From: a virus
Strand: one strand, 5' to 3'
Length of the DNA: 64,000 nt
Virus record (IMG/VR): IMGVR_UViG_3300032046_000016
Coordinates: 16,905-80,904 of that record
Shown: in pieces, positions 2,939 to 24,424 of the stretch
Position numbering within the stretch: position 1 is the first letter of the stretch
How the letters are laid out: each line of letters begins with the position of its first letter
Notes under the pieces: generated by a model
Told to the model about the DNA's origin: nothing
Database searches by the model: none
Seen by the model: the letters and a program-made list of their open reading frames with translations, nothing else
Position numbers and translations under genes: made by a program

Positions 2939-4294
2939 CTACGCCACGCTCACGCGGCGAGCGTTCGCGTGCAGCTTCTCCCACGGAATCTGGAGCGCCA
3001 CCAGGCAGCGCATCAAGAAGTCGTACGTCCCGCGGGTGATCGCCAGCGGAATGTAGGCCATGAAGTTCGCCTGGGGCTGCCCCAACGGGTCGAGCATGCC
3101 GACCAGCGATGCCCCGCGAGCCGGATTGCGATTGATCAGGAAGATCACCTCATCGCCGGCGTCGAGCGGCTTCTGGTTGGCGGCGTGCGGAGGCGCCGTG
3201 TACCCGCCGGTGTCGTCGAACGTGACCACCCGCGCCAACGGGTTGCCGTCCGCGTCGTAGGTGTTGGCGGGAATGACCGCCAGCAGCGTCTCCGTGCCGC
3301 TGGCCGTGCCCCGGAACACCTTGTAGAGGATGGCATCCGCGTCGTCGTCCCACGTGAGGCGGATGGTCTTGTTCGGGTTGGCGGTCGTGGCGTCGTCCTC
3401 GACCGCGGCCACCTGCTCGCCCCTCTGCGTGACCGACGCCACGCGATAGAAGAACTGCGTCGCGTCGGGCAGCGTGCCGCCGGCGACGGCTGCGGCGGAG
3501 AGGTTCCCCGGCTTCGCCACGCCGGTCGGCTTCACGTAGCTCGTTTCCAGAATGACCACGCCGCGATATGTTGACATGCGCATTCCGCCCTCGAACTCCA
3601 CGTCGGGCGTCTCCCGGCGGGCGAGGGTCTGAAGGCCGCTCACCTTCGAGTGCATGCCGATGCTCATCATGAACATCAGCGGGTCCTTCGCCGTGCCCCT
3701 GTACGGCGTGGCCGCGTCGATCAGCTCGTCCAGGACGCTGAGCGCGACGACCCCGTTCACGTCGAAGACGTTGGTCTGGGACAGGCGGTCGAACCCGTTG
3801 TACTGGTACGGGTCGCCGGACGCCGCGCCACCACCCGAGACGTCCTTCTCACCCGTGCTCCCGGAGGCGCCCCAGATGGTGCAGAACTCCAGCATCTCGC
3901 TGATGCTCTCCACGCCGGCGCCCTGCTCCAGGAGCAGAGAGTCGAAGAACTTCTTGCTCGCGCCCATCTGGAAGCCCGAAACCGAGCCCCAGTAGTCGTC
4001 GATCTTCAGGGTGACGGTGGGGCGATCGAAGGTCGACGCGCCAGGGCTGGTCTCCTTCGCCAGCTCGCCCTCGAAACGGGCCTGCTGACGCGCCGTGCGC
4101 CGCACGATCTCGTGCACCCGGGCCGTGGCCTGCGTCCTCTCAAGCAGGGCTACCAGCGGATTCTGGCTCAGAAGGTCCTCCACGAGGACCTTCTCCAGGT
4201 CTTCCGCCTGGAGAGCGGCACCAGAGCCGGAAGCCGCCGTCAGCGCCTTGATGAGCTCGCTGGTGGCCCCTTGAACCTGCGCGCTGGGGGGCAT
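2939..4294 (-). CDS. Major capsid protein (HK97 fold) with inserted Ig/FN3-like domain
   Basis: 451 aa after scaffold; N-arm KALTA..GAALQAEDL; EFCTIWG, YNGFDRL, YRGVVI motifs; strong AAGGAGG RBS. Confidence 0.85.
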   Translation of the reverse strand: MPPSAQVQGATSELIKALTAASGSGAALQAEDLEKVLVEDLLSQNPLVALLERTQATARVHEIVRRTARQQARFEGELAKETSPGASTFDRPTVTLKIDDYWGSVSGFQMGASKKFFDSLLLEQGAGVESISEMLEFCTIWGASGSTGEKDVSGGGAASGDPYQYNGFDRLSQTNVFDVNGVVALSVLDELIDAATPYRGTAKDPLMFMMSIGMHSKVSGLQTLARRETPDVEFEGGMRMSTYRGVVILETSYVKPTGVAKPGNLSAAAVAGGTLPDATQFFYRVASVTQRGEQVAAVEDDATTANPNKTIRLTWDDDADAILYKVFRGTASGTETLLAVIPANTYDADGNPLARVVTFDDTGGYTAPPHAANQKPLDAGDEVIFLINRNPARGASLVGMLDPLGQPQANFMAYIPLAITRGTYDFLMRCLVALQIPWEKLHANARRVSVA

Positions 4295-4373: not shown

Positions 4374-5924
4374 CTACTCGACCCGCACCCCGAACATGAT
4401 GCGGTTCAGCGCGCCCAGCCTCTCACGCGGGGGCAGGGCGTCCAAGCGCTTGCGCAGGGCGGTCTCGGCCTCGCTACCCTCGGCCTCCGAGCCCTCCCCT
4501 TCGGGAGGGCTACCGCCGAGGCTCTTGTAGACCGGCCGGCGGGCCTTCGCAATCTCGCTACGGACGACCTTCGCCACGTCCACGAGGGTGAGCGGCGCGT
4601 CTCCGTTCTGACCAGTGTCACCAGCCGCGGCGGCGGGAGCCTTCTCCCCGGCATCCTTGGGCACCAGGCCGGTCCCCTTCGCCACGTCCACGATGGCGCC
4701 CTGAAGGTCCTGCACCCAGGCAACCAGCTCCTTCATGGCGTCGCGGATGCCCGTCGCGTCGACAGCGCCATCGGCGCGCTTCTCCACGGCGGGAGCCGGC
4801 GTACCGTCGCCATCGGCCTTCTGGGTAGAGCCCTCCTCGAGCAGGGCGAGCATGGCCTTCACGCCCTCCTCGATCTTGTCCATGGCGCTCTTGATCTCGA
4901 TCTGGGACTGCTTCGAGAAGCGGGCTCCCCGCTTCTCGATGTCGCCCAGCGTGAGACCGCTCATGGCGACGACGGCTTCCAGAGCCCGCTTCGAGGTGTC
5001 GGTCAGCTCCTCGCTGCCGGCCGCCTTCTCCGGCTTGTAGACGGTGGCCGCGTTCTCGAAGGCGGCCAGCCACCTGGAGTTGAAGTCGCCCAGCGCCTTC
5101 TTCATGAGGTTGCCGCGCTCGTCCGTCTTGACCTCCGCGGCCTTCAGGATATTGAGCGAGACCTGGTGCAGAGCGTCGCTCAGCCGCCAGAACTGGCTCG
5201 TCGCCTCCTGGCCAGCGATCAGCCCGGCGAAGTCGGTCTGCTTCGCCACGCCACCAGCCGGCGCCTCGGCCGCAGCCTTCTGGACCGCGGCTCCCTCACC
5301 AGCCGGCGCGCCCTCACCAGCCGGCGCTCCCTCACCGGTCGGCGCGCCCTCAGCGGCCGGAGCGGCAGCGGGAGCGCCCTCGCCGGCCGGAGCGCCCTCA
5401 GCACCCTTGGCCGCTTCGCCCTCGCCCTCGCCCTCACCTTCGCCGTCGCCACCCTTCTTGGTGGGCTCCGGATAGCCGTACTTCGGCTTCTCCTTCGGCT
5501 TCTTCGCCTTGCCCGCGATGGCGGCGCGCAGCGCCTTAACCGCCTCCTGGAGGGGAGCCGGCAGGGAGTCGAAGACCTTGTCGAGCTGCTCGACAGCAGC
5601 CTTCACGGCCTTCACCTCGTCGTCCCCGAGGTCGCCGGCGGCCTTGCTCACCAGCACATCGAGGGCATTGGTGATCTCCACGGCCGCTTCCTTGCTTAGC
5701 TGGTCACCCTCGACCAGCACCGCCAACCCGCGGCCAATGGAGGCGACCTGGCCAGCCAGGTCCTTGGGGTCGGTGTCCAAGTCCGACATTCTCGCGCCTC
5801 CTTCTTGTCTGCGCTTCACGACCCACCAGTCCTCACCCAGGGCTGGCACGTCTACTAGGTCCACCCCACTGACGTGGAGATCGACCAGCTCTCCGACTTC
5901 ATCGGGCTTCTTCGCGTCAGGCAT
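4374..5924 (-). CDS. Capsid scaffold protein with N-terminal protease-type strand (ELVDLHVSGVDLVDVPA)
   Basis: Acidic, Ala-rich, low-complexity; immediately upstream of MCP; many KA motifs. Confidence 0.7.
   Translation of the reverse strand: MPDAKKPDEVGELVDLHVSGVDLVDVPALGEDWWVVKRRQEGGARMSDLDTDPKDLAGQVASIGRGLAVLVEGDQLSKEAAVEITNALDVLVSKAAGDLGDDEVKAVKAAVEQLDKVFDSLPAPLQEAVKALRAAIAGKAKKPKEKPKYGYPEPTKKGGDGEGEGEGEGEAAKGAEGAPAGEGAPAAAPAAEGAPTGEGAPAGEGAPAGEGAAVQKAAAEAPAGGVAKQTDFAGLIAGQEATSQFWRLSDALHQVSLNILKAAEVKTDERGNLMKKALGDFNSRWLAAFENAATVYKPEKAAGSEELTDTSKRALEAVVAMSGLTLGDIEKRGARFSKQSQIEIKSAMDKIEEGVKAMLALLEEGSTQKADGDGTPAPAVEKRADGAVDATGIRDAMKELVAWVQDLQGAIVDVAKGTGLVPKDAGEKAPAAAAGDTGQNGDAPLTLVDVAKVVRSEIAKARRPVYKSLGGSPPEGEGSEAEGSEAETALRKRLDALPPRERLGALNRIMFGVRVE
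5290..5450 (-). repeat. 18-nt tandem repeats encoding APAGEG plus (EG)n tract in scaffold
   Basis: ccctcaccagccggcgc-type units repeated about 5 times. Confidence 0.8.
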
Positions 5925-5932
5925 ATCCGCTC

Positions 5933-6310
5933 CTAACGCTTCTTGCGCTTGCCGTTGTTCTCGACGAGCGCCACATGGACCTCATGTATGCTGGCGGCAA
6001 TCTCTCGCAGGGCCGGCATCTCGGCATCGGAGTGCGCCTTCAGCGCCGCGATGAGCTCGGTATGCTGCACTTCTGTTGCCTCCAGCCTTCTCAACAGCTC
6101 GGTGATGAACGCCTCTCTGATCTCGGCCTGGCGCCTGGCCTCCGCCATCTGTTCCTTGACGAACTCCTCGAACGCCAGGCGCTGGCGTTCTGTGACGACC
6201 TGATTGTTGCGCACCACCCACGTGAACACCCCCGCGAGCACCAGGGCGGAGAGGAGCGTGCCGCCTTCCTTCAGCGCCTCGTACCCGAAATCGAGCATGA
6301 CCAATGTCAC
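5933..6310 (-). CDS. Single-TM coiled-coil protein, BhlA/UviB holin-like
   Basis: N-terminal TM (LLSALVLAGVFTWVV) then coiled coil with RE motif. Confidence 0.45.
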   Translation of the reverse strand: MTLVMLDFGYEALKEGGTLLSALVLAGVFTWVVRNNQVVTERQRLAFEEFVKEQMAEARRQAEIREAFITELLRRLEATEVQHTELIAALKAHSDAEMPALREIAASIHEVHVALVENNGKRKKR

Positions 6311-9300
6311 TTGATCTCGGACCGCTTTCTGGGTATGCGGCGCGCCCGGCCCTCAATGCTGAACCCGGTCCGCTCACCCTTCTTCACGCGCTCCCACTCG
6401 CGCGGATCGTTCACTCGCACGCCCATGATCCAGGTGCCCTTGACTACCTTATGCAGCTTGCCATCGGTTCCCTCCAGCTCGAAGTCTGTCGGTGCCAGGT
6501 AGCTCTCGACGACCCGGAGCCTCGGGTCGTCGTACACGTGCATAACGCCGATCTGCTGGAAGCGCTCCATAAAGCCGTGCGCCGCCTTGCGGATCTCCTC
6601 GGCCTTGACCACCTCGTCCTGGAGGTCGATGTACGGCCACGGCTTGAGCACGGGCCCGTAGACCAGGTGCTCCTCCTCGACCGCCTTGATGATCAGCATC
6701 TTCAGGACGATGCGGCTCTCGACGGCCTTCGCCTTCAGATCGACGAGCTTCGGCTTCTCCCCAGGCTTTGCCCACACCAGCCAGTGATCCCCGCGCTTCC
6801 GCCTCTCGTCTGCCACCTCGTCGAGCGTCTTCGTATCGGCGACTGGCGTTTCATCCTCAGGCCACTGAGCCAGCCAGAAGCGCTCGCCGGTGGGTCGGGG
6901 GACGGAGCTGATCACCAGCCGGCCCTTCATGTCGCCCTTCTCGTCCTTCAAGAAGAGCTCGAAGCTGTGGCGGTGCCACACGCCCATGTCCCAGGTGCCG
7001 TAGGCGACGGCGAACAGCATGCCGTAGGTCTTGGAGCTGGCGCCGGCCTCGCCAGGCTTGAAGACGGCGGGCTTGCCTCGCCCGACCTTCAGCCACTCGA
7101 CGGGCGGCGGGCCGTACCAGGTGCATTGGAAGCTGGGCGCGTGGTCGGCGGCGAGGAACTCGTCGGTCCCGTCGTCGTCGGTGTCCGGCTTGAAGATGAC
7201 GGGGTGAAACATGAGCTTGGGGCTGAACTGGCAGCGCAGGTCGCCGTGGTAGCGGTAGCCGGCCTTGCGCAGGTCGGCCTCGCTCTTGCCGGCGTCCTCT
7301 TCCTTGATGCCCATGTAGTGGTGGTGATAGACGAACTGGCCCGTGCCGCTGGGCGGCCACATTCTCTGCCAGTCGGTCTCCCAGAGGCGCAGGAAGCGCT
7401 CACCCCGCGACTCGCCCTCGCCCTGCTTCAGGAGGTGGATCAGCCCGATGTCGGGGACCTCGAGCAGCTCGAAGTCGGCGTCGGCGATCTCCGGGCAGGT
7501 CACTTGTCCAGACGTCTGGACTTTCTGCTTGGGCTCCTGGAGGACGTGGGCCCGGCGGGCGATATCGACCGCTTGGTTCGCGTAGTAGGCGTCCTTCCGG
7601 CTGATGTCCCGGTCGATCACGGTCGGCACGACCCAGTACAGGATCGGCTTCCCGTCCTTATCGGGACCGCTCACCAGCTCCTGGACCTGGACGGTCAGGA
7701 CGGCGCCCAGGGGATAGGTGCCGTTGTCGCTGACGCCGCCGACGTCGATGTACTCCCGGCCGTCGTACTCCTGGAGGTTCGTGTAGCTGTCGCGTCCGTG
7801 GAGCAGCCCGCAGGTGTAGGTCTTCGAGCCGCCGGCGTTGTCCTTGCTGTCGATCACCGTCACCTTCAGCTCGGTGACGTGCTTCACCTTCGACCACTCG
7901 TTCGTCGACCCGCCGATGCCATAGGGACCGTCGAGGGTCTTCACCATGGCGCCCTCGGACATGGCGACGGCGCTCGCCTTGAGGATCGCCGCGTTCATCT
8001 GCGCGCGGTCGTGAACGATGGTGGTGCTGGTGATAGCGAAGGCGGCCTTCCCCTTCAGGTTCTTGGCGTAGAACTCCTCCAGGGCGGTGCGCCGCTCGGT
8101 CCACGGCTTCTCGTGCAGGTCCTCTTCCCGGTAGGGCAGGTCGAAGACGGTCAGCACGACGGTGGCGCCGGCCAGGTCGGGCTCGTCGGCCAGGAGCGGG
8201 TCGAGCTCGGTGCGAGGCAGCCGCTTGCCATCCCGTACCATGCCCATATCGCAGTCGAGAATGTAGTCGCCAGGGATGGCGAGCAGCATCTTCGCCAGGT
8301 CGGGGAAGACCTTGGCCCGGTCGCGGATATTCTCGAAGGCGATCTCGACGCGGCCGCCCGCCTTCTGCACCACCGTACGGTAGCCGTTGAACTTCACCTC
8401 GACGTCGAGGCCGCCGGCGATGCGGTCCTTTGCCCAGTGATCCCAGAGCTCCGAGCTGGACAGGAACTCCGTGTACTCGGCGACCGCCGGCTTGGGCGGT
8501 ATCCACTTGCCGAAGGGCTTCAGGGCGACCTTCTCCAGGTCTTCGGCCTGCAGCGCCATCCCAGAGGGCGAGTCGGCGGTCAGCGCCTTCGTCGTGGGCT
8601 TCACGGCCCGGAGGCGCCCGCGGACGTGAACCGTCTCCCAAAGGCCCGGCTCCTCGAACGTCTCCTCCTCAAGGTCCAGGATCTCGAACTCGGCAGTAGT
8701 GCCAGCCTCCTCCCGGAGCTTGGGGTCGGCGTAGAACTGGAAGCTCAGCTTGTTCCAGTAGCTCTTGTGGGTCGGGTCGGCGAAGGCGCCCTCGCCCTGC
8801 GTGCTCGGTACCTCGAAGGCCAGGACGCCGCCGGACTTCAGCACCCGCCAGATCTCGCCCATGATGGCGACCTGGTCCTCCAGGTGCTCCAGGAAGTGCC
8901 AGGCCCGTACCTCGTCCACGCTGCCGTCGGGCCAGGGGATGCCCTGGCTCAGGTCGTGGACGACGTCCGGCTTGACGTCGGCCCGGGCGTCGATATTCAC
9001 GTAGCCGTCCAGCTTCTCCTTCCCGCAGCCCAGGTTCAGGCGCACGGGCCCAGCCTTCTTCAGCGTGACCACCGCGCGCTCTTCCACGGGACGCAGCACC
9101 AGGTCGTACAGGGGAACGTAGTCGGAGTGGGGGCCGGAGGCGCTGAACACGTGATGCAGCTCGGGCTTGCCGCTCTTGCCTGGGTCAACCTCCTTCCGCA
9201 TCAGGATGGTCAACCCTTCTATCAGGCCGGCGTTGTGGTCGCACGCCTCAAGCCGGTAAAGCAGGTCTACGTCTCCGGGCTTCGAGCCGTTGCCGCCGGC

Positions 9301-9630
9301 CTTGATCGCCAGGACCTCGTCGGCCGACTGCACCGCCGAGCCGACTATGCTCACGAAGTGAGGGACGACCAGGACGGGATCGGTCAGCCGCTTCAGCACG
9401 CTGTCGTGCTTCATGCCCCGCTTGTCCATCTCGGCGACGATCCCAGCGTGGAGGGCGCGGCAGCGCTTCTGGCTCAGCGGCTTCTCGTGGACAAGGACCT
9501 CGTTGCCCTTCTTCAGCTCGGCCCACCAGATATGCGTCAGGCGGTGGTCAGCGACAAGCCCGCCATCCGATACCTTCGACGGGTCGAACGTGTCGATGTC
9601 CTTGATCTTGGCGATGTCCACAGCATTCAT
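6307..9630 (-). CDS. Head polyprotein: Pol-beta-type NTase-like + SAM methyltransferase + ATP-dependent DNA ligase + LigD phosphoesterase-like + XkdF-like prohead serine protease
   Basis: IVGS..DVDLL; LNLGCG..HFLEHL..RVLKSGG; EVKFNGYR, EGAMVK, WSKVK; FVYHHH..HGDLR; LVYGPVL..D.QDE..GVMH..VVESY..KGTW..GFSIEG. Confidence 0.85.
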   Translation of the reverse strand: MNAVDIAKIKDIDTFDPSKVSDGGLVADHRLTHIWWAELKKGNEVLVHEKPLSQKRCRALHAGIVAEMDKRGMKHDSVLKRLTDPVLVVPHFVSIVGSAVQSADEVLAIKAGGNGSKPGDVDLLYRLEACDHNAGLIEGLTILMRKEVDPGKSGKPELHHVFSASGPHSDYVPLYDLVLRPVEERAVVTLKKAGPVRLNLGCGKEKLDGYVNIDARADVKPDVVHDLSQGIPWPDGSVDEVRAWHFLEHLEDQVAIMGEIWRVLKSGGVLAFEVPSTQGEGAFADPTHKSYWNKLSFQFYADPKLREEAGTTAEFEILDLEEETFEEPGLWETVHVRGRLRAVKPTTKALTADSPSGMALQAEDLEKVALKPFGKWIPPKPAVAEYTEFLSSSELWDHWAKDRIAGGLDVEVKFNGYRTVVQKAGGRVEIAFENIRDRAKVFPDLAKMLLAIPGDYILDCDMGMVRDGKRLPRTELDPLLADEPDLAGATVVLTVFDLPYREEDLHEKPWTERRTALEEFYAKNLKGKAAFAITSTTIVHDRAQMNAAILKASAVAMSEGAMVKTLDGPYGIGGSTNEWSKVKHVTELKVTVIDSKDNAGGSKTYTCGLLHGRDSYTNLQEYDGREYIDVGGVSDNGTYPLGAVLTVQVQELVSGPDKDGKPILYWVVPTVIDRDISRKDAYYANQAVDIARRAHVLQEPKQKVQTSGQVTCPEIADADFELLEVPDIGLIHLLKQGEGESRGERFLRLWETDWQRMWPPSGTGQFVYHHHYMGIKEEDAGKSEADLRKAGYRYHGDLRCQFSPKLMFHPVIFKPDTDDDGTDEFLAADHAPSFQCTWYGPPPVEWLKVGRGKPAVFKPGEAGASSKTYGMLFAVAYGTWDMGVWHRHSFELFLKDEKGDMKGRLVISSVPRPTGERFWLAQWPEDETPVADTKTLDEVADERRKRGDHWLVWAKPGEKPKLVDLKAKAVESRIVLKMLIIKAVEEEHLVYGPVLKPWPYIDLQDEVVKAEEIRKAAHGFMERFQQIGVMHVYDDPRLRVVESYLAPTDFELEGTDGKLHKVVKGTWIMGVRVNDPREWERVKKGERTGFSIEGRARRIPRKRSEIK
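7506..7521. repeat. 16-bp palindrome GTCCAGACGTCTGGAC, copy 1
   Basis: Perfect palindrome, identical to 25659-25674. Confidence 0.8.
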
Positions 9631-9638
9631 GACGACAA

Positions 9639-9677
9639 AGACCCCACCGAAAGACGGTGGGGTCTCCAAGGGACCTC
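9639..9677 (-). promoter_or_regulatory. 11-bp hairpin occluding the polyprotein RBS, with two GAGNNCC motifs
   Basis: AGACCCCACCG-TCTTT-CGGTGGGGTCT ends 8 nt before ATG 9630; GAGGTCC (9677-9671) and GAGACCC (9666-9660). Confidence 0.6.
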
Positions 9678-9712
9678 TTCGTTAAGTGCTGGGGATCAGA
9701 TTCAGCGCCAGG

Positions 9713-9931
9713 TCATTGCAGGCGGGCGGCCGTCCTGTTGATCTCGGCTACCAGCTCGTCAAGGGGCACCTCCCAGTAGTGCCAGGCCCCGTGGTGCTTC
9801 TGGCGCATTCGCACCACGATCACGTCACGTCTAAGGCATACCATAAACCAGGGCGCTCCGCAAGCACAATACTGAGCGCGCTCGGCACCCTCTGCCGGCG
9901 GCGTCTCATGGGCCTGCAGCTCCCGCGTCAT
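9713..9931 (-). CDS. Small Zn-ribbon protein, Com-like translational regulator candidate
   Basis: YCACG...KHHGAWH; directly upstream of the hairpin and polyprotein. Confidence 0.5.
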   Translation of the reverse strand: MTRELQAHETPPAEGAERAQYCACGAPWFMVCLRRDVIVVRMRQKHHGAWHYWEVPLDELVAEINRTAARLQ

Positions 9932-10966: not shown

Positions 10967-11983
10967 TCAGGCAGAGCGCCTCTGGCCGCTCCAAGGAACC
11001 TCCGGGCGGTCCCAGGCACAAGGATCGGCAGCGGCCTTTCGCAGCAGCTTGCCCACGCCAACCCAGCAGCGACGCGAGAACGGCGACACCCTGCAGCGGC
11101 AGCGTGGGTGTAGGGGAGGATGATCGTGGCCGCTCGGAAACATGCCCCCGAAATGGGCGCTGGGAGGCGACGGCGCCAGGAGGCCGGACCGGAGAGGCAC
11201 CGCGCCGGCCGCCTCGTTGTCCCGGCAGCGTGAGCAGGCGCCAAACTGGCAGATCCACTCGACGTACTCCACGCCGTTCTGCTGGAAGGTCATCAGGCGG
11301 CCGATCTGCCGCGTGCGCTTCAGCTCGGTCCTGGCGATCAGCTCGGCGCGGTCCCGGTTCTGAACGATCTTGTCTATCTGGCCAGTCATGCGCTCCGGCC
11401 CGAAGTTGCCGGACAACCCGCGGAGGATGGAGTTGGCGATGGAGCGGCGGGTCTGCTCACGGATTCCCTTGATGCTGGAGCCCACGGTCAGCGACAGCAT
11501 GCGCCGGATCGCTGGGTCGCGGAGAACGAAGCGCTCGGGCGGGAAGCCCTCGCCCTTCGGGCCCGCCTTCTTGACGTCCTGAGCGGTGTAGCCCAGCTCG
11601 GTCAGGGCGTCGGCGCCGCCCCGCTGGAAGCCCAGGATCGCGTCCAGCGCCAGGACCGTTCCCATCTTGGCCCACAGACGCTGCGCCTCCTCGCTATCGT
11701 CCCAGGCTGCCAGCAGCCCCTCGATGCGGCTGCGCGTCGAGTTGGGCGACAGGCGCACCCATTCCTCGACCGGCATCGAACGGCGCAGCTCCGCGAACAG
11801 GCGGAGGACACCGAGGCCGGCCTTTACCTCGTGGGGCTCAATCAGGTCGCGGGGTTTCGGGCGTGTGGGGAGCGGAAGACGGTAGCGTTGCTGGGGCGTC
11901 GCCGCCTTGAGGATGTCAGTCGCCGGAGGGCTGAGAGTCGTGGTCCTGTGCCTCCCTTCGGCGATAGCCGTTACGCTCTCCAA
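10967..11983 (-). CDS. MuF/SPP1 gp7-like minor head protein
   Basis: RAELIARTE, CSRC, PPLHPRCRC motifs; start uncertain. Confidence 0.88.
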   Translation of the reverse strand: MESVTAIAEGRHRTTTLSPPATDILKAATPQQRYRLPLPTRPKPRDLIEPHEVKAGLGVLRLFAELRRSMPVEEWVRLSPNSTRSRIEGLLAAWDDSEEAQRLWAKMGTVLALDAILGFQRGGADALTELGYTAQDVKKAGPKGEGFPPERFVLRDPAIRRMLSLTVGSSIKGIREQTRRSIANSILRGLSGNFGPERMTGQIDKIVQNRDRAELIARTELKRTRQIGRLMTFQQNGVEYVEWICQFGACSRCRDNEAAGAVPLRSGLLAPSPPSAHFGGMFPSGHDHPPLHPRCRCRVSPFSRRCWVGVGKLLRKAAADPCAWDRPEVPWSGQRRSA

Positions 11984-12218: not shown

Positions 12219-12364
12219 ACCGCCACCGCCTCGGGAGACCGGTTCCTCTTTATCTGTTGCAGGAGAAGCCGTAGCGCGCATTGCAGGCACACGTACTCTT
12301 CCTCAAGAGGGTCGAAGTGCAGATCGCCGCCGCACTTCGGGCAGGCCTTCAGTACGAGCCTCAC
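12212..12364 (-). CDS. Small zinc-finger protein
   Basis: CPKCGGDL...CLQC; GTGA overlap with portal stop. Confidence 0.55.
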   Translation of the reverse strand: MRLVLKACPKCGGDLHFDPLEEEYVCLQCALRLLLQQIKRNRSPEAVAVC

Positions 12365-14004
12365 ACCGCTAGCTGAAACAGCTCCTGCAGGTCCGCGCTC
12401 GCCGCCTTCTTCGTAGCCGCATCCACGCCGGCGTCCCGGAGGTCCTGGATCACGCTGTCGAAGTACCAGCGGATCTCGCCCTCGGTGTCCAGCTCCTGCA
12501 TCGCCTTCTCGACCGCCACCTTCAGCGGGTCGGGAACCTGCGAGCTCAGGAACTTGCGCCGGCGGCCCCGCTCGCAGTCCTTGAGCGCGGCCCTCTTCCA
12601 GCGCCGCATCTCGTCCAGGACAGGCTGAGCGGCGTCGGCCTTCTGCGCCTTGCCTGCGCCCTCGGGCTGCACGAAGAGCGGAGTGGCCGCCTCGCCAGCC
12701 GGCACGAGGCCCTGATTCATCAGGAACGTATCGCCGCCCTCGTAGGGCTCCATGCCGCGCTTGGCGCGCCACTCGTTGCGGGTCTGCAGGCCGGAGCCGA
12801 CCGCGCTCACGCCGACCGCCACCTCGTCGCTTTCCTTGGCGAAGTCCGGAACCTTGAACTGGATGCGCCAGCCCTTGATGCCCTTCCGCCAGAGGCGCCA
12901 CATGTTCAGCGTCGTCTGCACGATCTCCTGCATGGGCTTGGCTTCCATCCAGTACAGGATCTGCTCCAGGCCCTCCAGGTTCGCGCGGTTGACGTCCTCG
13001 ACCATGCCAAGCACGCCCGCCGATGCGCCCACGACGGACAGCATCTCGTTGCGGCTGAACGTCCGGCCCTTCAGGTACTCCGAGTCGCGGCCCGGACCTG
13101 GACCGCTCACGAAGCTCTTGTAGTCGACGCCACCCTTCACGACAACGGCGTCGCGGTTGGCGTTCTCGACCCCCGCATACCAGGCCTCGATCTTAGCCTC
13201 CAGCGCTGCGAAATCGTCGTCCTCGATGTCCTCGGGCGCTGCCCACATGCCTGGTGGGGTGCGCTGATTGCGGAACGAGTTCTTGTTCCACGCCTGGGCG
13301 TACAGATCGGTGATAGCGGCGATGCGCAGCGACTCCAGGTCGGAGGCGGTCCACCGTCCCTCGATGTCGGGCACCTGGAAGTTCAGCACCTCGTCGATGG
13401 CAAACTCGGCGGCTTTGCCCTCGAAGTACTGGATGTACGCCTTCTCCAGGTTGGGGAAGTAGCCCTTGGCGTCCACCATCGGCACCACCCGCCCCGGCAT
13501 GACCACGAAGTCGATCTCGTCGCCGAAGCCGTTCTTGACGATCTCCCACGAGCAGAGGTTAAAGAGCTTCAGCCGGGCGAACGTCAGCCAGAGCTTGTGC
13601 ACGGTGAGCTGCCACTGGCGGACGTTAATCACGGGCCCCTGGAGGTCGGGGTTAAAGAAGGTCCGCAGGTAGGCGCCAGCGTCGGGGTCGGGGTCTTCAC
13701 CCTCTTCCAGCTCGTCGCGGGCCTCGACGATCTCCAGCGGCTGCGCCACGCAGATCAGGGCGATGCGCCGAATGGCGGCGCGCACCCAGGGTAGCGACCG
13801 CCACAGGGCGACGAGCTCGAAGTGGCTGATCTGGGCGCTGCCCTCATACATGGCAGCCATCCCAGCGCCAAGCCCGTACAGGAAAGGTGGCCGCATGAAG
13901 CTGCGCGGCTGCGGCGCGGACTTCGGCGATGGCGTCGCCGCCTTAATGACGCGCCGCTCGTGGCCAGGAGGAAGCCAGAGCTCAACCTCAGTCCCTGTCG
14001 TCAT
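12361..14004 (-). CDS. Portal protein (HK97 family)
   Basis: WVRAAIRRIA, NKNSFRN..PPG, NRAN, TRNEWRA..GMEP..GGD motifs; after terminase. Confidence 0.92.
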   Translation of the reverse strand: MTTGTEVELWLPPGHERRVIKAATPSPKSAPQPRSFMRPPFLYGLGAGMAAMYEGSAQISHFELVALWRSLPWVRAAIRRIALICVAQPLEIVEARDELEEGEDPDPDAGAYLRTFFNPDLQGPVINVRQWQLTVHKLWLTFARLKLFNLCSWEIVKNGFGDEIDFVVMPGRVVPMVDAKGYFPNLEKAYIQYFEGKAAEFAIDEVLNFQVPDIEGRWTASDLESLRIAAITDLYAQAWNKNSFRNQRTPPGMWAAPEDIEDDDFAALEAKIEAWYAGVENANRDAVVVKGGVDYKSFVSGPGPGRDSEYLKGRTFSRNEMLSVVGASAGVLGMVEDVNRANLEGLEQILYWMEAKPMQEIVQTTLNMWRLWRKGIKGWRIQFKVPDFAKESDEVAVGVSAVGSGLQTRNEWRAKRGMEPYEGGDTFLMNQGLVPAGEAATPLFVQPEGAGKAQKADAAQPVLDEMRRWKRAALKDCERGRRRKFLSSQVPDPLKVAVEKAMQELDTEGEIRWYFDSVIQDLRDAGVDAATKKAASADLQELFQLAV

Positions 14005-15963: not shown

Positions 15964-16534
15964 CCAGCACCTCTTCCTCGACCTCAGGGGTGGCGCCAGT
16001 CCCAACGAAGACGTTGGTCTGGCTCTGCAGGAAGGTCGGCGGGACCGGGCGCGACGGGTACATTCCCACGTCCTGCCCGATCTCCCATATCTTACCAAGG
16101 ACGGTGACCAGGGTTCGCGTGGCGCCGTCTATCTCTTCCATCAAGAAGCCCCCGCGCGCCCCTTCTTCCACCTCCATCGCCCGACCTATCCGGTCGATCA
16201 AGGACGGCACCAGGCCGCTCAGCACTTCGAGGACGTTGATCTTGACGTCGATGCCGGCGAGCTTCTTCTGGATGAAGCTCTCGGGCAGCATCGCCGCGTC
16301 CGGAACGTGGGCCTCTCGGTAACGCTGGATGCAGCTTCGCCCTGGAATGGCGGCGAGCAGGTCGGGATAGTCGGCGTAGAGCGTGCGCAGGTAGCGTTCG
16401 ACGCTGCCCGGCGACCAGCGCGACTGCAGCAGGTCAACGATGTCGTCGCAGAAGGGCGACGCCTCGACGCGGGACACGTGCCGCCCGCCCAACCGCTGCG
16501 GAGCTTTAACGGGTTCTTCGGGGTTCTCTCTCAT
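15875..16534 (-). CDS. Putative terminase small subunit
   Basis: Helical protein directly upstream of and overlapping TerL. Confidence 0.5.
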   Translation of the reverse strand: MRENPEEPVKAPQRLGGRHVSRVEASPFCDDIVDLLQSRWSPGSVERYLRTLYADYPDLLAAIPGRSCIQRYREAHVPDAAMLPESFIQKKLAGIDVKINVLEVLSGLVPSLIDRIGRAMEVEEGARGGFLMEEIDGATRTLVTVLGKIWEIGQDVGMYPSRPVPPTFLQSQTNVFVGTGATPEVEEEVLVAYRALYENRTGRSAPRLAAPPARDPAEE

Positions 16535-17268
16535 GCCGCCCCCTTCAGCGGCGCGTAGACCTCCAGCAGCTCGTTCAGACGCTCGTTGATGTCCACGCCA
16601 GCGCGCTCGCACTCCTCGGCGATGCGCGTGAGGTTCTTCATCGTACGCTCGCTCGCCCTCACCATCAAGTGCGTCCGGCCAGCGTACTTGAACACGATGA
16701 AGCCCCAGTGCAACTGCTGGCCGTGCTCGGCCGTGATCTGCTTCAGCACCGACGCCAGGTCCTCGACGGTGGTGATTTCCCTCTTCGTCGCATCGAGCCG
16801 CTTGCGGATCTCGGGCGCAAGCTTGGCGCGCACGTCCCGAAACAGGCGCTTGAATTCGCTGTCCTCAGTAACGGCCATCAGCCGCCGTGTGGCGTCGGGC
16901 CCGTACTTGTTCGACAGCTCGAGAAAGACCCTGGTGAAGCCGACTCCGCTCATGCGCCCCTTCAGCATGTTGTCGCGGACCGTCTCGAACTTCCGCTTGT
17001 CCTCGTCGTAGTCGGCGAAGACGATGCAGGGAAGCTCCGGCATCTCCAGGAGCTTGGCGGCGCGCCAGCGATGCTCGCCAGCGATGATCTGGTATCTCCC
17101 GTCCGGCGTCGGCGCCACGCGCAGGGGCATCGTGAAGCCGTCCGCCTTGATGCTCTCCACCAGGGCGGCGAACGCGGCGTCGCTCTCCACGTTCGGGTTC
17201 CACTCGACCGGGTCCAGGAGGTCGACGGCGATCCTCTGCGGCTCCCGGATAGGAGGCGGTTTAGCCAT
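16531..17268 (-). CDS. ParB/Srx-domain protein
   Basis: WNPN..LVESIKADGF..IIAGEHRWRAA. Confidence 0.88.
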   Translation of the reverse strand: MAKPPPIREPQRIAVDLLDPVEWNPNVESDAAFAALVESIKADGFTMPLRVAPTPDGRYQIIAGEHRWRAAKLLEMPELPCIVFADYDEDKRKFETVRDNMLKGRMSGVGFTRVFLELSNKYGPDATRRLMAVTEDSEFKRLFRDVRAKLAPEIRKRLDATKREITTVEDLASVLKQITAEHGQQLHWGFIVFKYAGRTHLMVRASERTMKNLTRIAEECERAGVDINERLNELLEVYAPLKGAA

Positions 17269-17455
17269 CGGCAGGCGGCTCCAGCAATTCGTTGCGCTTC
17301 GCCCGCGGATCGTAGCGTTCCAGGGCCTCATCCACCAGGCGCCGGAGCGCCTCCGTGCGGTTCGTTTCCCAATCGACGGCCAGGTAGTCGATCATCTTCA
17401 CCTGCCTGGTCGGGAGCCAGACATGAACGGCCTTGTCACCTTTACGCGGACTCAT
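17261..17455 (-). CDS. Ribbon-helix-helix DNA-binding protein
   Basis: VHVWLP..ID.LA...NRTEALRRLVDEAL. Confidence 0.7.
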   Translation of the reverse strand: MSPRKGDKAVHVWLPTRQVKMIDYLAVDWETNRTEALRRLVDEALERYDPRAKRNELLEPPADG

Positions 17456-18851
17456 GTTCAGCCTCCATGTAGGACGGCTCGGGCTGCAGGCAGTTGTCGA
17501 CGAAGCCCGCCGGCAGCATGTTCTGGGTGAGGCAGGCGAGCATCTGCCCGCGCGAATTGAGCCCTTGTCGGAGTAGATTCGGCCTCATGTGCACAAGTGC
17601 ACGGCCTAGGTCGCGGTATGAGCAGGGCGTCCCAACGCCGCGCAGGGCATTCTCCACCAGGTCCTCCGTCGCCTCGAGATCTCGGGCGGCGCGTTCGCGG
17701 GCCCGCTCTCTCCTATCGGCTACCCGGGCCTCCACGATGTCCAGGAGCGCGCCGATATTGGCGGTTCGATCGTAGCGCTCCCTAATCAGGGCCGGCACGT
17801 GGGCGATGCGCCGCTTCGCCTCATCGTAGTTCTCGGCCACCCATCGCAGCATAGCGGCGCACTCCACGTCGTTCCGGAAGTAGAAGGGGTAGTCGGGCAG
17901 GAACTCGCCCTCGTTCCCCGTCCAGCGGACGAGCACCACGAGCCCGGCGTAGAGCTGCTCGAAGCAGGCGGCCGGAAACAGCTTCAGCGACTGCCAGTAG
18001 ATGCTGGCGTGGCAGCGGCTCATGAGCGCCAGGGCGTCCTCCCAGGACAGGTTGGACATGGCGCGCACGACGCGCTGGGCGCCCATCCTCTTGACGACGT
18101 CGTGCAGCCGCTTCCCTGTGTCAACGTAGGTCACGTAGACATCGGCCTCCCGGCCGCCGGCGACGTACTGGACGTAGTGCCCAACGGCCTTCTCGCCGCC
18201 CTTCGTCGCCGTGAAGCGCCCGCCGAAGTAGAAGCTGAACCGGTCGAACTTCGGGCCCCGCAGTCGGTCCAGCAGGTCGCAGTCGGGACCGATGGGCAGC
18301 ACCGTGGTCCGCCGGTCGTAGTCGGCAATCAGGGGAGCTCCGCAGAGCGCCGCCACGACGTCCCGGGCCCGCTCCAGGGAGAAACGGCTCGGCATCACGT
18401 TCACGTTCAGGGCGTAGCCCAAGGCCCAGGTCGCCAGGTCATCCCGCGACAGCGGCGTGACCTCGTCCGAGTCGAAGAACTTGGCGCTCACGTTCCAGAT
18501 GACGACAGGCACCTCGTACATCGCCTTGTTCACGCCCTCCAGGAAGCGGCTCAGCACCAGGCCCTGGACGGGATTGTTCGTCAGCACGGCGTCGATGGGA
18601 TAGGCGAGCGGCTCGCGCCAGCGCTCCCACACCGAGGTCGGTATCAGCGCCTCGGCCTGCCGGCCGATCTTTGGCGTAGGCAGAAGGCGCTCGACGCGGT
18701 CGGTCAGGCCGTCAGCGGTGGCGCTGGGAGTGACGTAGTAGGAGAACCAGCCGCGCTCAGCGGCCAGGCGGACCCAGTCCCGGCTCAGGAGCCAGGAGCT
18801 GTCGGCGCCGAAGTGGCCGGCCTCGTAGACCGGGCAGACCAGGAGCCTCAT
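17442..18851 (-). CDS. Glycosyltransferase (GT-B fold, divergent)
   Basis: PSRF, FYFGGRFTATKG, FPAACFEQLYAGLVVL. Confidence 0.72.
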   Translation of the reverse strand: MRLLVCPVYEAGHFGADSSWLLSRDWVRLAAERGWFSYYVTPSATADGLTDRVERLLPTPKIGRQAEALIPTSVWERWREPLAYPIDAVLTNNPVQGLVLSRFLEGVNKAMYEVPVVIWNVSAKFFDSDEVTPLSRDDLATWALGYALNVNVMPSRFSLERARDVVAALCGAPLIADYDRRTTVLPIGPDCDLLDRLRGPKFDRFSFYFGGRFTATKGGEKAVGHYVQYVAGGREADVYVTYVDTGKRLHDVVKRMGAQRVVRAMSNLSWEDALALMSRCHASIYWQSLKLFPAACFEQLYAGLVVLVRWTGNEGEFLPDYPFYFRNDVECAAMLRWVAENYDEAKRRIAHVPALIRERYDRTANIGALLDIVEARVADRRERARERAARDLEATEDLVENALRGVGTPCSYRDLGRALVHMRPNLLRQGLNSRGQMLACLTQNMLPAGFVDNCLQPEPSYMEAEHESA

Positions 18852-19819
18852 ACCAGGATTTCACCCGCGGCGGCCCTATCGACGTCAGCGGCGAGCATCA
18901 TCTCAATGAGCTCGTCGAAAGAGGTACGCGGCCGCCAGCCAAGCTCCTCGAAGGCGCGCGTGGGGTCGGCGATCAGATTGGCGGTCTCCAGAGGGCGCTC
19001 CCGGGCCTCGTCGTGCTTGACTACCTTCTCGGGGTCGAGGCCCGCCAGGCTGCAGGCCAGCGATACCAGCTCGCCGACCGTTCGACCGACGCCGGTCCCG
19101 ATCACCAGGTCCGCCGGCGTGGGCTGCTGGAGCATCAGGTGCACCGCCTCCATGTAGTCGGCGGCGTACCCCCAATCCCGGACGGCCGTCAGCCGGCCGA
19201 TGGGCAGGTAGTCGCGGCGGCCGGCCTTAATCTCGGCCAGCCCCTTCGTCACGTGCCTGGTGACGAACTCCGCACCCCGCCAGGGCGACTCGTGGTTAAA
19301 GAGGATGCCCGACACCACGTACATGCCATAGGACCGCCGATAGACGTCGCACATCTGGTGGGCGAACACCTTCGCGCAGGCGTAGGGGCTCACCGGATGG
19401 AAGGGCGTCGTTTCGCTCTGAGGCGGTGGTGAGTGGCCGAACATCTCAGACGAGCAGGCCTGGTAGACGCGGACCTTGCTCGCCCCCGACTGCCTCACCG
19501 CTTCCAGCACCCTGACGGGCCCGAGACCGGTCAGCAGCGCCGTCAGCTCGACGTGATCCCAGGAAGCCGGCACGAAGGTCAACGCGGCCAGATTGTAGAT
19601 CTCGTCGGGCCCGACCTTCTCAAGGGCGGCGCAGATCGACCACGGGTCGAGTAGGTCGGCGGCCACGAGCTTCATGCCCGGCGCCCGCTGCCGCGCCAGG
19701 GGCTCCCCGTAGCGATCATGGCTGGCCAGCGTACCGAACACCTCGTAGCCCATCTTCTCCAGGTGAACGGCGAGGTACGGCCCGTCCTGGCCGGTGATCC
19801 CCGTGATCAGCGCGCGCAC
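18848..19819 (-). CDS. gmd: GDP-mannose 4,6-dehydratase
   Basis: ALITGITGQDG, EIYNLAA, SSEMFG, SPYACAK, ILFNHES, RDWG. Confidence 0.95.
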   Translation of the reverse strand: MRALITGITGQDGPYLAVHLEKMGYEVFGTLASHDRYGEPLARQRAPGMKLVAADLLDPWSICAALEKVGPDEIYNLAALTFVPASWDHVELTALLTGLGPVRVLEAVRQSGASKVRVYQACSSEMFGHSPPPQSETTPFHPVSPYACAKVFAHQMCDVYRRSYGMYVVSGILFNHESPWRGAEFVTRHVTKGLAEIKAGRRDYLPIGRLTAVRDWGYAADYMEAVHLMLQQPTPADLVIGTGVGRTVGELVSLACSLAGLDPEKVVKHDEARERPLETANLIADPTRAFEELGWRPRTSFDELIEMMLAADVDRAAAGEILV

Positions 19820-20952
19820 ATTACCCTCTCAAGAGCGTCGGCTACTCTCATCACGTCCCGAGCGGATACGTTCGGGCCGATTGGCAGGCAGATGCCCGTC
19901 TTCCAGATGGAGCTCGCGCAGGGCATAGCGTGCACAACGCCGGCGCCGTGGTCCTTATGGAAGGGGAGGAGGTGCATCGGCGTGAAGGCGGCGATGGTCT
20001 CGATGCCGCGCTCGCTGAGGGCGACCGCGACGTCAGCAGGCTGATGGGCAGACTTCAGCGAGACGCAGAGTCGGTAGTAGACGTGACCACGAACGTCGAC
20101 CGGCACGGCGATAGGTAGGTCGCGGAGCGCGGACCTGTAGACCTCGGCTATCCGTTGCCGGTGTGCCACCAGCGACTGCACCCTGCCGATCTGCGGGATG
20201 CCGAAGGCGGCCTGGAGGTTCGACATCTGGCATCCGAAGCCAAGGCCGGCGGCGTCGTAACGGGCCCACTCCCCGACGTGGAGAAACAGATCCCGGCGGG
20301 ATCGGACCGCGATCGCCAGCTCCTCGTCGTCCGTTATGACTGCGCCGCCGGCTCCCCCCGTCGTGATGATCTTGTCGCCACGGAAGCTGAAACAACCGGC
20401 GAGGCCGCTATGCCCGACGAGCCTGCCATCCTCGTACCAGGCGCCGGCCGCCTCGCAAGCGTCCTCGATGATAGGCACCCCGACCTCCTCGCACACCTGA
20501 AAGACGTCGGGATGCACGGGCGCGCCGTAGACGTGAACGGGCACCACGGCCAGGACGTTCGCCGGCCCCAGCTCGGCCAGCAGCTCGGACAGCCGATCGG
20601 GAGCCATCCCAAGGCGCTCAGGCTCGGCGTCTACCACCGCCACCTTGCAGCCGGCATGAACCGCCGCGGCGTAGGTCGGGGCGCAGGTGTAGGTTGCCGT
20701 CACGACGATGGAGCCGGATCTGCGCTCGCGCAGAGCATCCAGGACGGTCAGCAGGGCGGCAGTGCCCGAGCTGACAGCCACGCAGTGCTGGGCGTGGAGG
20801 AAGGCTGACCACATGCGCTCGAAGACCTGCACGTAGTCGCCTGGGGAGAGCCACCCGCTATCGAGGCAGGAGAGAACGCTGGACCGCTCGGGTTCGCCGA
20901 ACTCGGGCGATGTCAGGGCAAGCGGCGGGGACGGCATTGCCATTTGCGCCAA
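19807..20952 (-). CDS. DegT/DnrJ/EryC1/StrS aminotransferase (perosamine synthase-like)
   Basis: SSGTAAL, VHVYG, IIEDACEA, FSFRGDKIITTGG. Confidence 0.9.
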   Translation of the reverse strand: MAQMAMPSPPLALTSPEFGEPERSSVLSCLDSGWLSPGDYVQVFERMWSAFLHAQHCVAVSSGTAALLTVLDALRERRSGSIVVTATYTCAPTYAAAVHAGCKVAVVDAEPERLGMAPDRLSELLAELGPANVLAVVPVHVYGAPVHPDVFQVCEEVGVPIIEDACEAAGAWYEDGRLVGHSGLAGCFSFRGDKIITTGGAGGAVITDDEELAIAVRSRRDLFLHVGEWARYDAAGLGFGCQMSNLQAAFGIPQIGRVQSLVAHRQRIAEVYRSALRDLPIAVPVDVRGHVYYRLCVSLKSAHQPADVAVALSERGIETIAAFTPMHLLPFHKDHGAGVVHAMPCASSIWKTGICLPIGPNVSARDVMRVADALERVMCAR

Positions 20953-20985
20953 TGATACTCGAAGGGTCGGGGGCTGAAAAGAGGG

Positions 20986-21738
20986 CTACGGCACTCGCTG
21001 GAACAGAACGGCGGCATACCGCCAGCGGTGCGCTCGCACCAGGCGGGCCAGCACGATGTCGAGGGGCAGAGTGATCGCGAAAGCGAGCGGCGCCAGCAGG
21101 TGGCGGAACAAGGCCCGGTCCAGGACGTTGACGCCCACGCCACGCTCGACCATGAAGCCGTTACTAGCGAACTCGCACACCAGGGGCGCCAGCTCCACAG
21201 GTTCCTTATACGGCAGGCCCCGTTGCCAGGGCGGTGACGGCGTCTGCAGATTGTCCAGGACGAGGACGCGGTCGGCCAGGCGGCACATCTCGCTCACGAC
21301 CAGGCGCCAATCGTTCGAGAACGGCAGGCTGGTTATCGCCACGGCCAAGTGCGGCCGCACTTCCCGCAGCCAGGGAATCTCGCTCATAGTCTCGGCATCG
21401 GCGACGGCGAAGTGGCCGAACGGACCGATCTCTCGCTGGTCTCTAACGTCGCGCAGGTGCTTTCTGAGCTGCGACATGCGGTGCGCCGCTCCTGGCCAGT
21501 CTACGGCGTCTATCCCCCACACCTCGCAGTGGAAGCGCCGCGCCATCCACGCGCTCAGTTTGGCGTCGCCGCACCCAACGTCAAGCACGCGCGGCAGGCC
21601 GGGCAAGCGGGGAAAGATGCGCACCAACGCTGCCTTGCGCACCAGGTCGGCGTAGGCGTCCAGCCAGCGATCACGATAGTGACACGGCGACGAATCACCT
21701 TGCCGGCGGGACCAGAAGGCTCTATCCCGGAGCGGCAT
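20986..21738 (-). CDS. Class I SAM-dependent methyltransferase
   Basis: VLDVGCGDA..WGID. Confidence 0.8.
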   Translation of the reverse strand: MPLRDRAFWSRRQGDSSPCHYRDRWLDAYADLVRKAALVRIFPRLPGLPRVLDVGCGDAKLSAWMARRFHCEVWGIDAVDWPGAAHRMSQLRKHLRDVRDQREIGPFGHFAVADAETMSEIPWLREVRPHLAVAITSLPFSNDWRLVVSEMCRLADRVLVLDNLQTPSPPWQRGLPYKEPVELAPLVCEFASNGFMVERGVGVNVLDRALFRHLLAPLAFAITLPLDIVLARLVRAHRWRYAAVLFQRVP

Positions 21739-24369: not shown

Positions 24370-24395
24370 GGTGCCCTCCTGTTGTCCGTGAGTAT

Positions 24396-24424
24396 AGTGT
24401 AGCACCCGACATCGCTGACGGCAA
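24396..24424 (-). promoter_or_regulatory. Sigma70-type promoter
   Basis: TTGCCG-17-TACACT, extended TG. Confidence 0.6.

Follow-up and report, generated by a model that had tools for sequence, protein, structure and literature searches.

Proteins that carry many disparate enzymatic domains in one polypeptide are known from phages and conjugative elements as polyvalent proteins (Iyer, Burroughs, Anand, de Souza, Aravind 2017; PMC5512222). According to that paper they are encoded near MuF and portal genes, sometimes have a processing peptidase at the C-terminus, include nucleotidyltransferases (NTases), methyltransferases (MTases), 2H phosphoesterases and ADP-ribosyltransferases among their cargo, and are predicted to be delivered with the DNA. 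The gene described here belongs to a family that resembles them in these respects, delivery with the DNA being a prediction here too, and is located in a stretch of 64 kb (the window) of the 80.9-kb linear IMG/VR virus record IMGVR_UViG_3300032046_000016; the full ~81 kb are referred to as the record. It encodes a polyprotein of 1107 residues (aa) with five enzyme-type domains and a helical domain in one chain, next to portal and MuF genes, in the order helical N-domain, Pol-beta-type NTase, class I MTase, ATP-dependent DNA ligase with OB domain, LigD-type 3'-phosphoesterase (PE) and XkdF-type prohead protease. The protease lacks the last strand of its fold, and this strand is encoded by the start of the scaffold gene (Table 1). 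XkdF and LigD are both absent from PMC5512222 in a term search, and its sections on peptidases, NTases and 2H domains describe no ligase-PE-XkdF core, no split protease strand and no copied capsid peptide such as those reported below; the paper states that the 2H domains it covers do not occur together with RNA ligases. Full-text literature searches uncovered no account in which a capsid protease is joined to a ligase or a LigD-type phosphoesterase, and the ligase-PE-XkdF design can be regarded as a widespread, undescribed form of the known polyvalent-protein theme.

Among the XkdF protease-scaffold proteins, gp58 of Bacillus phage BMBtp14 shares with the window a Peptidase_S78_2 domain (E 3e-48 in gp58, 1e-29 in the window), a place in the head module and a scaffold-like helical partner, but a similar strand motif (N-terminal), the protease and a scaffold tail are all found in one 403-aa chain in gp58, whereas the window protease ends the 1107-aa protein and the strand opens a separate scaffold gene. 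Proteins loaded into capsids and injected include T4 Alt and the T4 internal proteins, P1 Dar and the N4 virion RNA polymerase, and the HK97 protease is reportedly targeted to the capsid. Like the polyprotein in the mechanism proposed below, the capsid-targeted proteins of HK97, T4, P1 and N4 enter the procapsid via protease or scaffold, are processed by the prohead protease and leave together with the DNA on ejection; the loading signal proposed for the window differs from theirs in being the strand complementation of a split protease, and we know of none among them with a DNA ligase or a LigD-type phosphoesterase.

Bacterial LigD likewise combines, in a single chain, an ATP-dependent ligase, a 3'-phosphoesterase with the same fold and a nucleotidyl-transferring domain, and the window genome, in addition, contains Ku. 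To our knowledge the LigD-type PE is known only from enzymes of the non-homologous end-joining type. LigD has an AEP-type polymerase where the window has a minimal Pol-beta-type NTase, and neither AEP nor primase families turned up when the window protein was scanned with Pfam or in the family lists of about 85 relatives. The window ligase resembles archaeal and eukaryotic ligases more than LigD, the window PE has an insert of about 23 residues between the two His ligands, and both, unlike their LigD counterparts, are joined to a capsid protease encoded in a head module. Two phages with a Ku gene, Omega and Corndog, reportedly borrow the LigD of their host, and like the window phage they are equipped for end joining on their own genome. 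Both are Ku-encoding mycobacteriophages (Pitcher et al. 2006, cited in PMC4351075); the window phage differs in having its own ligase next to Ku and a second ligase, with a PE, in a structural polyprotein.

A prohead protease split between polyprotein and scaffold

The C-terminal domain of the polyprotein matches Peptidase_S78_2 over aa 980-1099, with 103.5 bits in the protein scan (cut-off 24) and 108.1 bits in the genome search, and its structural matches in BFVD are XkdF and prohead proteases. Residues D1002, H1031 and S1091 (in GFSIEG), with putative catalytic roles, show little or no variation in 42 sequences and none in 15. No S78, ClpP or S49 protease is present elsewhere in the record, and XkdF is the only match among the four prohead-protease families searched. 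The polyprotein chain stops 16 residues past S1091, and the strand expected after the Ser motif is not in the same chain, so that the HK97-type fold is incomplete.

The strand motif is found close to the N-terminus of the scaffold-like protein. A profile derived from ten such N-terminal motifs (EVSLVD-PAN-RKFL type) recognizes it there, and also matches the start of the ORF (open reading frame) directly 3' of the polyprotein in 41 of 80 loci. In one locus (L035) a cis fusion places the motif about 30 residues past the Ser motif, and positions 95-158 of the 165 positions of Pfam Peptidase_S78 cover both the Ser motif and the strand with 31 bits (cut-off 21). This makes the strand part of the protease fold, and in most of the polyprotein family it is carried by the scaffold gene. 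Several of the polyprotein-scaffold junctions are of a stop-then-start kind, with the ribosome site within the end of the polyprotein gene. Five loci (L003, L004, L007, L010, L020) have a polyprotein end of the form GAGGTGG-NN-TAA with an in-frame GTG, 3 bases on, as scaffold start, and this junction falls exactly where L035 is fused.

The complex of polyprotein aa 960-1107 with scaffold aa 1-70 was modelled in three runs, with three controls. The ipSAE was 0.84, 0.85 and 0.83 (median 0.84) and that of the best control 0.00; 58 of 80 solved complexes attain the pass mark, as do 2 of 110 mismatched pairs. At least 77% of the contacts were common to the runs, and the pLDDT of the partner was at least 53. 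Scaffold residues 7-36 are placed against polyprotein residues 990-1106, with scaffold residues 11-21 paired with polyprotein residues 1090-1101, and the model supports binding of the scaffold strand to the polyprotein protease.

Domains of the polyprotein and their occurrence in related viruses

The initial annotation of this gene, made from the sequence, had predicted an ORF of about 1107 aa in the protease position between MuF and scaffold, carrying a weakly DenV-like helical domain, an NTase, a class I MTase, a ligase with OB fold, a LigD 3'-phosphoesterase-like motif and an XkdF-like serine protease. The position of the ORF is borne out by the translation and by its Pfam and PHROG neighbours. 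The protease was recovered where expected by Peptidase_S78_2, as were the MTase by a Methyltransf_11 match above cut-off and the ligase with its OB fold by DNA_ligase_A_M and PHROG 114, and the phosphoesterase call agrees with an AlphaFold2 (AF2) model that matches LigD PE structures only. The modelling of segments that had been proposed at the same time (here aa 1-195 and 725-1107) gave an NTase-like topology and the LigD-PE fold. The term "four-enzyme cargo" used in the annotation holds for the domain calls and is slightly overstated for the evidence on the NTase.

In the N-terminal domain the helical fold was confirmed by the AF2 model, and a structure search gave generic helical-hairpin matches only (Z about 6). 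The motif from which DenV likeness had been suggested lies at aa 64-78; the likeness is restricted to sub-threshold matches of Pfam Pyr_excise (DenV) in 5 of 42 relatives (best E 0.0024; in P0059 profile positions 8-76 of 81, E 0.19), with no match in the Pfam scan of the window polyprotein. The mechanism of T4 endonuclease V needs a catalytic alpha-amino group at the extreme N-terminus, and this does not agree with a domain that begins about 20 residues into the chain in the window and 70-130 residues in many relatives.

The NTase is recognized by G97-S98, D120-x-D122, a third acidic residue D176 and the expected order of strands and helices. In the model of aa 1-195 (pLDDT 87) the topology is strand-helix-strand-helix-strand-strand, with GS following strand 1 and DxD on strand 2, and an insert is present between the two motifs. 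The annotation had paired D120-V-D122 with G114-S115; its motif type and the fold order stand, with the GS moved to G97-S98. In 42 relatives G97, D120, D122 and R126 are invariant and S98, H159, H168 and D176 nearly invariant. The window NTase has no Pfam match, the homologue P0016 reaches 25.0 bits with NTP_transf_2 (cut-off 21) on the same motif, and 8 of the 42 relatives match at E<1. Neighbours in the ESM Atlas are NTase clusters (0.89-0.92). A single-sequence PDB search with the N-terminal segment gave no real match, and the wide list of VIA for aa 1-195 was filled by the helical hairpin of aa 6-74, so that the NTase portion was barely probed. The domain could equally be of the protein-AMPylating anti-toxin type, by analogy with what PMC5512222 suggests for polyvalent proteins. 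For the MTase, the nearest solved chains are small-molecule O- and N-methyltransferases, weakly matched.

The family profile of the ligase finds archaeal and eukaryotic DNA ligases in the PDB (3gde, E 5e-20), and DNA_ligase_A_M reaches E 1.6e-53 within the family. Residues K413, N415, G416, R418, D497, E559, G560, K564, W579, K581 and K583 are invariant in nine relatives. Elsewhere in the window, on the minus strand, a Ku homologue (Pfam Ku E 2.5e-31, 28475-29281) is located directly upstream of a stand-alone ATP-dependent DNA ligase of 286 aa (E 5.7e-22, 27618-28478), and the two make a self-contained end-joining pair. The ligase of the polyprotein and the one next to Ku show 27% identity over 105 residues, which rules out a recent duplication.

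The PE was modelled together with the protease (aa 725-1107, mean pLDDT 86). Foldseek gave six significant matches for this model, all to the LigD-PE superfamily (3p43, 3n9b, 3n9d, 3p4h, 5dmp), with E 4.5e-5 for 3p43. Alignment to LigD-PE structures with VIA gave Z 13.0, 12.5, 11.0, 10.7 and 10.1 with root-mean-square deviations of 1.9-2.7 A over 117-128 residues, the next fold having Z 3.5; the highest value is for 3p43 (2.0 A, 123 residues aligned) and the Pseudomonas LigD PE, 3n9b, has Z 11.0. The motif FVYHHH...HGDLR occupies aa 766-799, and residues H771, H795, D797, R799 and W846 are invariant in 115 family sequences. HMMER pairs the HGDLR stretch with LHYDFRLE of 3p43. The profile LigD_N (PF13298) has no match in the record, even at E<=1, and sub-threshold matches in relatives (best E 0.003-0.007), and a single-sequence PDB search with the PE segment gave no real match. 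The assignment as PE is based on the fold, the motifs and the sub-threshold LigD_N matches of the relatives. A conserved extension follows the PE, and a low-confidence stretch of the model (aa 970-977) separates this extension from XkdF.

The linker between MTase and ligase contains a 21-residue copy of the N-arm of the major capsid protein (MCP) of the same phage, with a pairwise E of 2e-5, and no second match of this kind is seen among 15 head-module proteins. At seven of the identical positions the codons differ synonymously, as against three replacements, indicating that the peptide is kept at the protein level. Peptides copied from the N-terminus of the own MCP are also present in polyproteins of other loci, always between mapped domains, and involve two further major-head-protein families. 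The copy in L068 has 13 of 16 residues identical (z 10.5) and that of L054 has z 4.4, and those with weaker significance are the two copies in L057 and the 8/8 identical copies in L008 and L009. A short motif of DVHV type was found in 2 of 43 polyproteins and in 3 of 43 reversed controls.

An exhaustive HMMER search gave 351 cluster representatives at E<=1e-30, the best 150 of them all above 200 bits, and therefore the fusion is not an artefact; assembly artefact, which the initial annotation had named as a possible refutation, is ruled out by a core order recurring in more than 100 independent metagenomic proteins. This core is NTase-[MTase]-ligase-PE-extension-XkdF, in 26 proteins without and in 20 with the MTase, and short forms have PE-extension-XkdF only. 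The survey of domain variation that had also been suggested shows that the gaps in the core are filled by other cargo: UDG in 15 of 75 scanned members (6 of 42 in one set, 9 of 33 in another), and, among 33 relatives, metallo-beta-lactamase in 9, D12 Dam MTase in 5, 2H/LigT in 3 and the anti-CBASS protein Acb1 in 2 (E 2e-29). An ADP-ribosyltransferase (E 1.6e-40) and HNH, GNAT, ChaB and rhodanese domains occur as further cargo. In the genomic context, read from 80 IMG/VR loci, 30 of 54 related loci have a MuF homologue no more than 8 kb upstream, as a rule directly adjoining the polyprotein gene, and 55 of 73 have a major head protein of a PHROG-verified family at most 8 kb downstream. No homologue of the window MCP is present among the downstream ORFs of the 80 loci. 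A search of 185,579 species genomes gave one match, to a contig of a metagenome-assembled genome of Dehalococcoidales. Five proteins of 1944-2445 aa (P0110, P0118, P0123, P0129, P0145) match in a ligase part (around aa 790-1090) and an MTase part (around aa 1400-1550) alone; the order of these two is reversed, PE and XkdF are absent, and the proteins possibly belong to a different family.

Proposed function and alternative explanations

We propose that the gene product is a polyvalent head-assembly polyprotein that is loaded by docking of the scaffold strand, is trimmed by its own protease and has its enzymes ejected with the DNA, and would give this reading a probability of roughly 0.55. The C-terminal XkdF domain would be the prohead protease of the phage, with an incomplete HK97-type fold that receives its last strand in trans from the N-terminus of the scaffold. 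Docking should draw the whole 122-kDa polyprotein into the procapsid and would probably also prevent protease activity before assembly. Once enclosed, the protease would cleave the scaffold and also the flexible linkers in the polyprotein itself, one of which contains the MCP N-arm copy, and this would free the NTase, the MTase, the ATP-dependent DNA ligase and the LigD-type 3'-phosphoesterase. At infection the freed enzymes would exit with the DNA, the phosphoesterase cleaning blocked 3' ends and the ligase sealing nicks or ends of the incoming genome, and NTase and MTase would act on some target. Genome circularisation on entry is one option among several for the purpose of the cargo.

Sequence and models show the domain identities, the PE fold, the conserved catalytic residues, the architecture across the family, the gene order and the split strand; from these and from the complex model we infer docking, packaging, cleavage and ejection, and also the substrate (DNA or RNA). 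Loading into the capsid is supported indirectly, since XkdF is the only prohead-protease family found in the record, since the scaffold N-terminus completes the protease fold, with conserved split genes and a complex model that passes its controls, and since relatives carry typical injected anti-defence cargo (Acb1, ADP-ribosyltransferase, Dam MTase). With regard to the substrate we lean towards DNA, because of the DNA-ligase-family ligase, the type of PE, the UDG and Dam MTase of relatives, Ku with the second ligase, and SbcCD.

Several observations weigh against this proposal. The complex model was made with an alignment produced by the analysis itself, and its pass may reflect likeness to solved HK97-type proteases, the pair being the halves of a split gene. 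A 125-aa ORF separates polyprotein and scaffold in the window, while most related loci have the scaffold gene immediately after the polyprotein gene. In about 45 of 55 related loci no N-arm copy is detected, and the copy is thus not a general loading or cleavage signal; it fits an occasional shared cleavage or assembly signal. The phage already has the separate pair of Ku and ligase, the MTase resembles small-molecule enzymes and not DNA MTases, and Foldseek found nothing significant with aa 1-195. GenBank phages include no near relative by DNA, and by protein only an XkdF or an MTase piece is matched, covering at most 13% of the query; the ligase-PE part is in no cultured GenBank phage. Ligases usually have KxDG as motif I, which is KxNG in the polyprotein. 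The window PE, finally, departs from near-invariant family positions (K839Y, G809H, Q842P, D876A), and the sequence substitutions at such positions suggest that its activity may be weakened.

The last point could be taken further, the enzyme-like domains being partly decayed in this phage and serving less as catalysts than as a bulk internal head protein or as modules that bind DNA ends. The PE is off consensus at about 15 positions that at least 60% of the family share, K839 (K in 114 of 115 sequences) being one of them, and the insert between GS and DxD in the NTase would agree with decay. The window protein, however, retains every residue that is invariant in the ligase, in the PE metal site, in the NTase and in XkdF, and a GC3 of 0.91 and an intact frame argue for selection; such decay is very unlikely. 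A set resembling mRNA capping, with a ligase-like guanylyltransferase, an MTase and a tunnel-type triphosphatase, might be read from the weak Pfam mRNA_cap_enzyme matches in several relatives (best E 0.0014) and from triphosphate-tunnel enzymes low in the fold lists (Z 3.0-3.5), but the family value for DNA_ligase_A_M given above and a Z of 13 for LigD-PE as against about 3 for the tunnel enzymes leave hardly any room for it.

It is also conceivable that the enzymes are not packaged, if XkdF excises itself or enters the procapsid alone, and that they act late in the producing cell, for instance in trimming or sealing nicks in replicated DNA before or during packaging. Co-expression with the late head genes and the flexible, low-confidence linkers ahead of XkdF are in line with this, and encapsidation of the enzymes is itself deduced. 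A late cytoplasmic role would, however, leave the obligatory fusion to the protease in more than 100 lineages unexplained, as well as Acb1 or ADP-ribosyltransferase cargo that is useful at entry, and the predicted docking of the scaffold would take the whole chain inside; we regard it as unlikely. If the loading is as proposed, the cargo could still be a kit for RNA that would rescue tRNAs cut by host anticodon nucleases at the start of infection. Ends with a 2',3'-cyclic or 3'-phosphate would be healed by the PE or 2H domain and joined by the ligase, the MTase would cap the junction as Hen1 does, and 3' ends would be restored by the NTase. LigD PE enzymes act on ribonucleotide and cyclic-phosphate ends, some relatives have 2H/LigT domains, the MTase is of the small-molecule/RNA type and not of the DNA type, and three relatives touch Pfam RNA_ligase, weakly. 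The ligase, on the other hand, is of the DNA-ligase family with an OB domain and its best solved relatives are DNA ligases, and the recurrent extra cargo, UDG and Dam MTase, acts on DNA. The Pnkp/Hen1 and T4 systems of RNA repair have a Rnl-type ligase and a polynucleotide kinase, whereas Pfam scans of the polyprotein and its relatives found no Rnl-type ligase, RtcB ligase or kinase domain. The chances of an RNA-repair kit appear slim.

If the enzymes are packaged and ejected as we propose, a DNA ligase and a cleaner of 3' ends would enter the cell before any gene expression, and this would directly counter host nucleases or nicking defences or deal with short cohesive ends, and would lengthen the list of virion-borne activities. 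The split-protease dock would be a concrete loading rule for large foreign proteins in HK97-type capsids, which bears on assembly and on the use of phage capsids as engineered protein carriers. A wider generalisation can be offered tentatively, and is more doubtful than the proposal itself: many uncultured phages may inject their own end-healing and end-sealing analogue of LigD, with a Pol-beta-type NTase, loaded via a split protease that is completed by a scaffold strand, so that loading, activation and assembly are one coupled event and the cargo is a swappable cassette for DNA repair or anti-defence. The family comprises hundreds of sequence clusters, almost all from viral metagenomes, and represents a reservoir, so far unexplored, from which ligases, phosphoesterases and anti-defence domains could be drawn.

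The head module and other genes of the window

The record is 84% complete by CheckV, has a GC content of ~66% and carries nearly all its genes on the minus strand. Read 5' to 3' on this strand, the head module consists of a 572-aa ORF, portal, MuF, three small ORFs, the polyprotein, the 125-aa ORF, the scaffold-like protein, the MCP, and head-tail adaptor and gp10-like genes. The coordinates are given in Table 1.

Table 1. Features of the polyprotein gene and of the head module around it, with window coordinates.
Feature	Residues	Position	Strand	Evidence or remark
Whole polyprotein gene	1-1107	6307..9630	-	ATG start, 1107 aa, stop included; ORF list and translation, Pfam and PHROG domains
N-terminal helical domain	1-80	9391..9630	-	AF2 model: two long helices (22-40, 54-70) and a small hairpin
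Minimal Pol-beta-type NTase	84-182	9085..9381	-	Motifs and model topology; Pfam cut-off passed in a homologue only
Class I S-adenosylmethionine (SAM) MTase	190-345	8596..9063	-	Methyltransf_11 E 3.7e-8, 34.3 bits (cut-off 21.2); LNLGCG SAM loop
Copy of MCP N-arm, 21 residues, MTase-ligase linker	348-368	8527..8589	-	18/21 identical to MCP aa 16-36
ATP-dependent DNA ligase, adenylation and OB	375-700	7531..8508	-	DNA_ligase_A_M aa 408-583, E 3.5e-16; PHROG 114 reaches aa 654 (OB)
LigD-type 3'-phosphoesterase fold	763-928	6847..7344	-	AF2 model, Foldseek, VIA, conserved motif
PE-module extension, helix and beta-hairpin	929-965	6736..6846	-	WLVWAKPG motif; high pLDDT; conserved family-wide as 'link'
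XkdF-type prohead serine protease	979-1099	6334..6696	-	Peptidase_S78_2 E 1e-29; ends shortly after GFSIEG serine motif
Scaffold N-terminal strand motif	12-41 of scaffold	5802..5891	-	Last conserved segment of HK97-type protease fold; motif HMM E 6e-15
Scaffold-like protein	516 aa	4374..5924	-	Ala/Glu/Gly-rich; translation; between protease and capsid gene
MCP N-arm, original of the copied peptide	16-36 of MCP	4187..4249	-	Pairwise match to polyprotein aa 348-368
MCP		2939-4294	-	PHROG 752 and 212
MuF-like head morphogenesis gene		10967..11983	-	Upstream of polyprotein; Phage_Mu_F and PHROG matches
Portal		12361-14004	-	Precedes MuF in the head module
572-aa ORF	572 aa	14380-16098	-	No Pfam or PHROG match; terminase by position only

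The 125-aa ORF (5933-6310, minus strand) has a hydrophobic N-terminal segment and a coiled coil, and no family match. An alternative TTG start at 9669, upstream of the ATG of the polyprotein, would give 1120 aa. A plus-strand ORF of similar length (6304..9741) has a translation rich in Leu, Gly, Ala and Arg with none of the domains, and was rejected as an antisense shadow in DNA of 66% GC. A perfect GC-rich hairpin, GAGACCCCACCG / CGGTGGGGTCTT (9633-9668, minus strand), ends 7 bases before the polyprotein ATG, and may have a role in translation control or as a terminator since it contains the only purine-rich stretch there that resembles a ribosome site. The 16-bp palindrome GTCCAGACGTCTGGAC is present at 7506-7521, 25659-25674 and 48905-48920, as two exact copies and one of 15/16, where none is expected by chance; the first of these lies within the polyprotein gene, in the ligase-PE linker. 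Three ParB-like proteins are encoded in the window (16531-17331, 23497-24405, 29546-31204).

Other genes for DNA transactions are an SbcC/Rad50-like ATPase that adjoins an SbcD/Mre11-like phosphoesterase (40739-44016, minus strand), a RuvC-like resolvase (56609-57208) and two HNH genes. A tandem group of genes located upstream of the packaging genes (18848-21765, minus strand) encodes a GDP-mannose 4,6-dehydratase, a DegT-type aminotransferase and a methyltransferase, which constitute a sugar-modification pathway.

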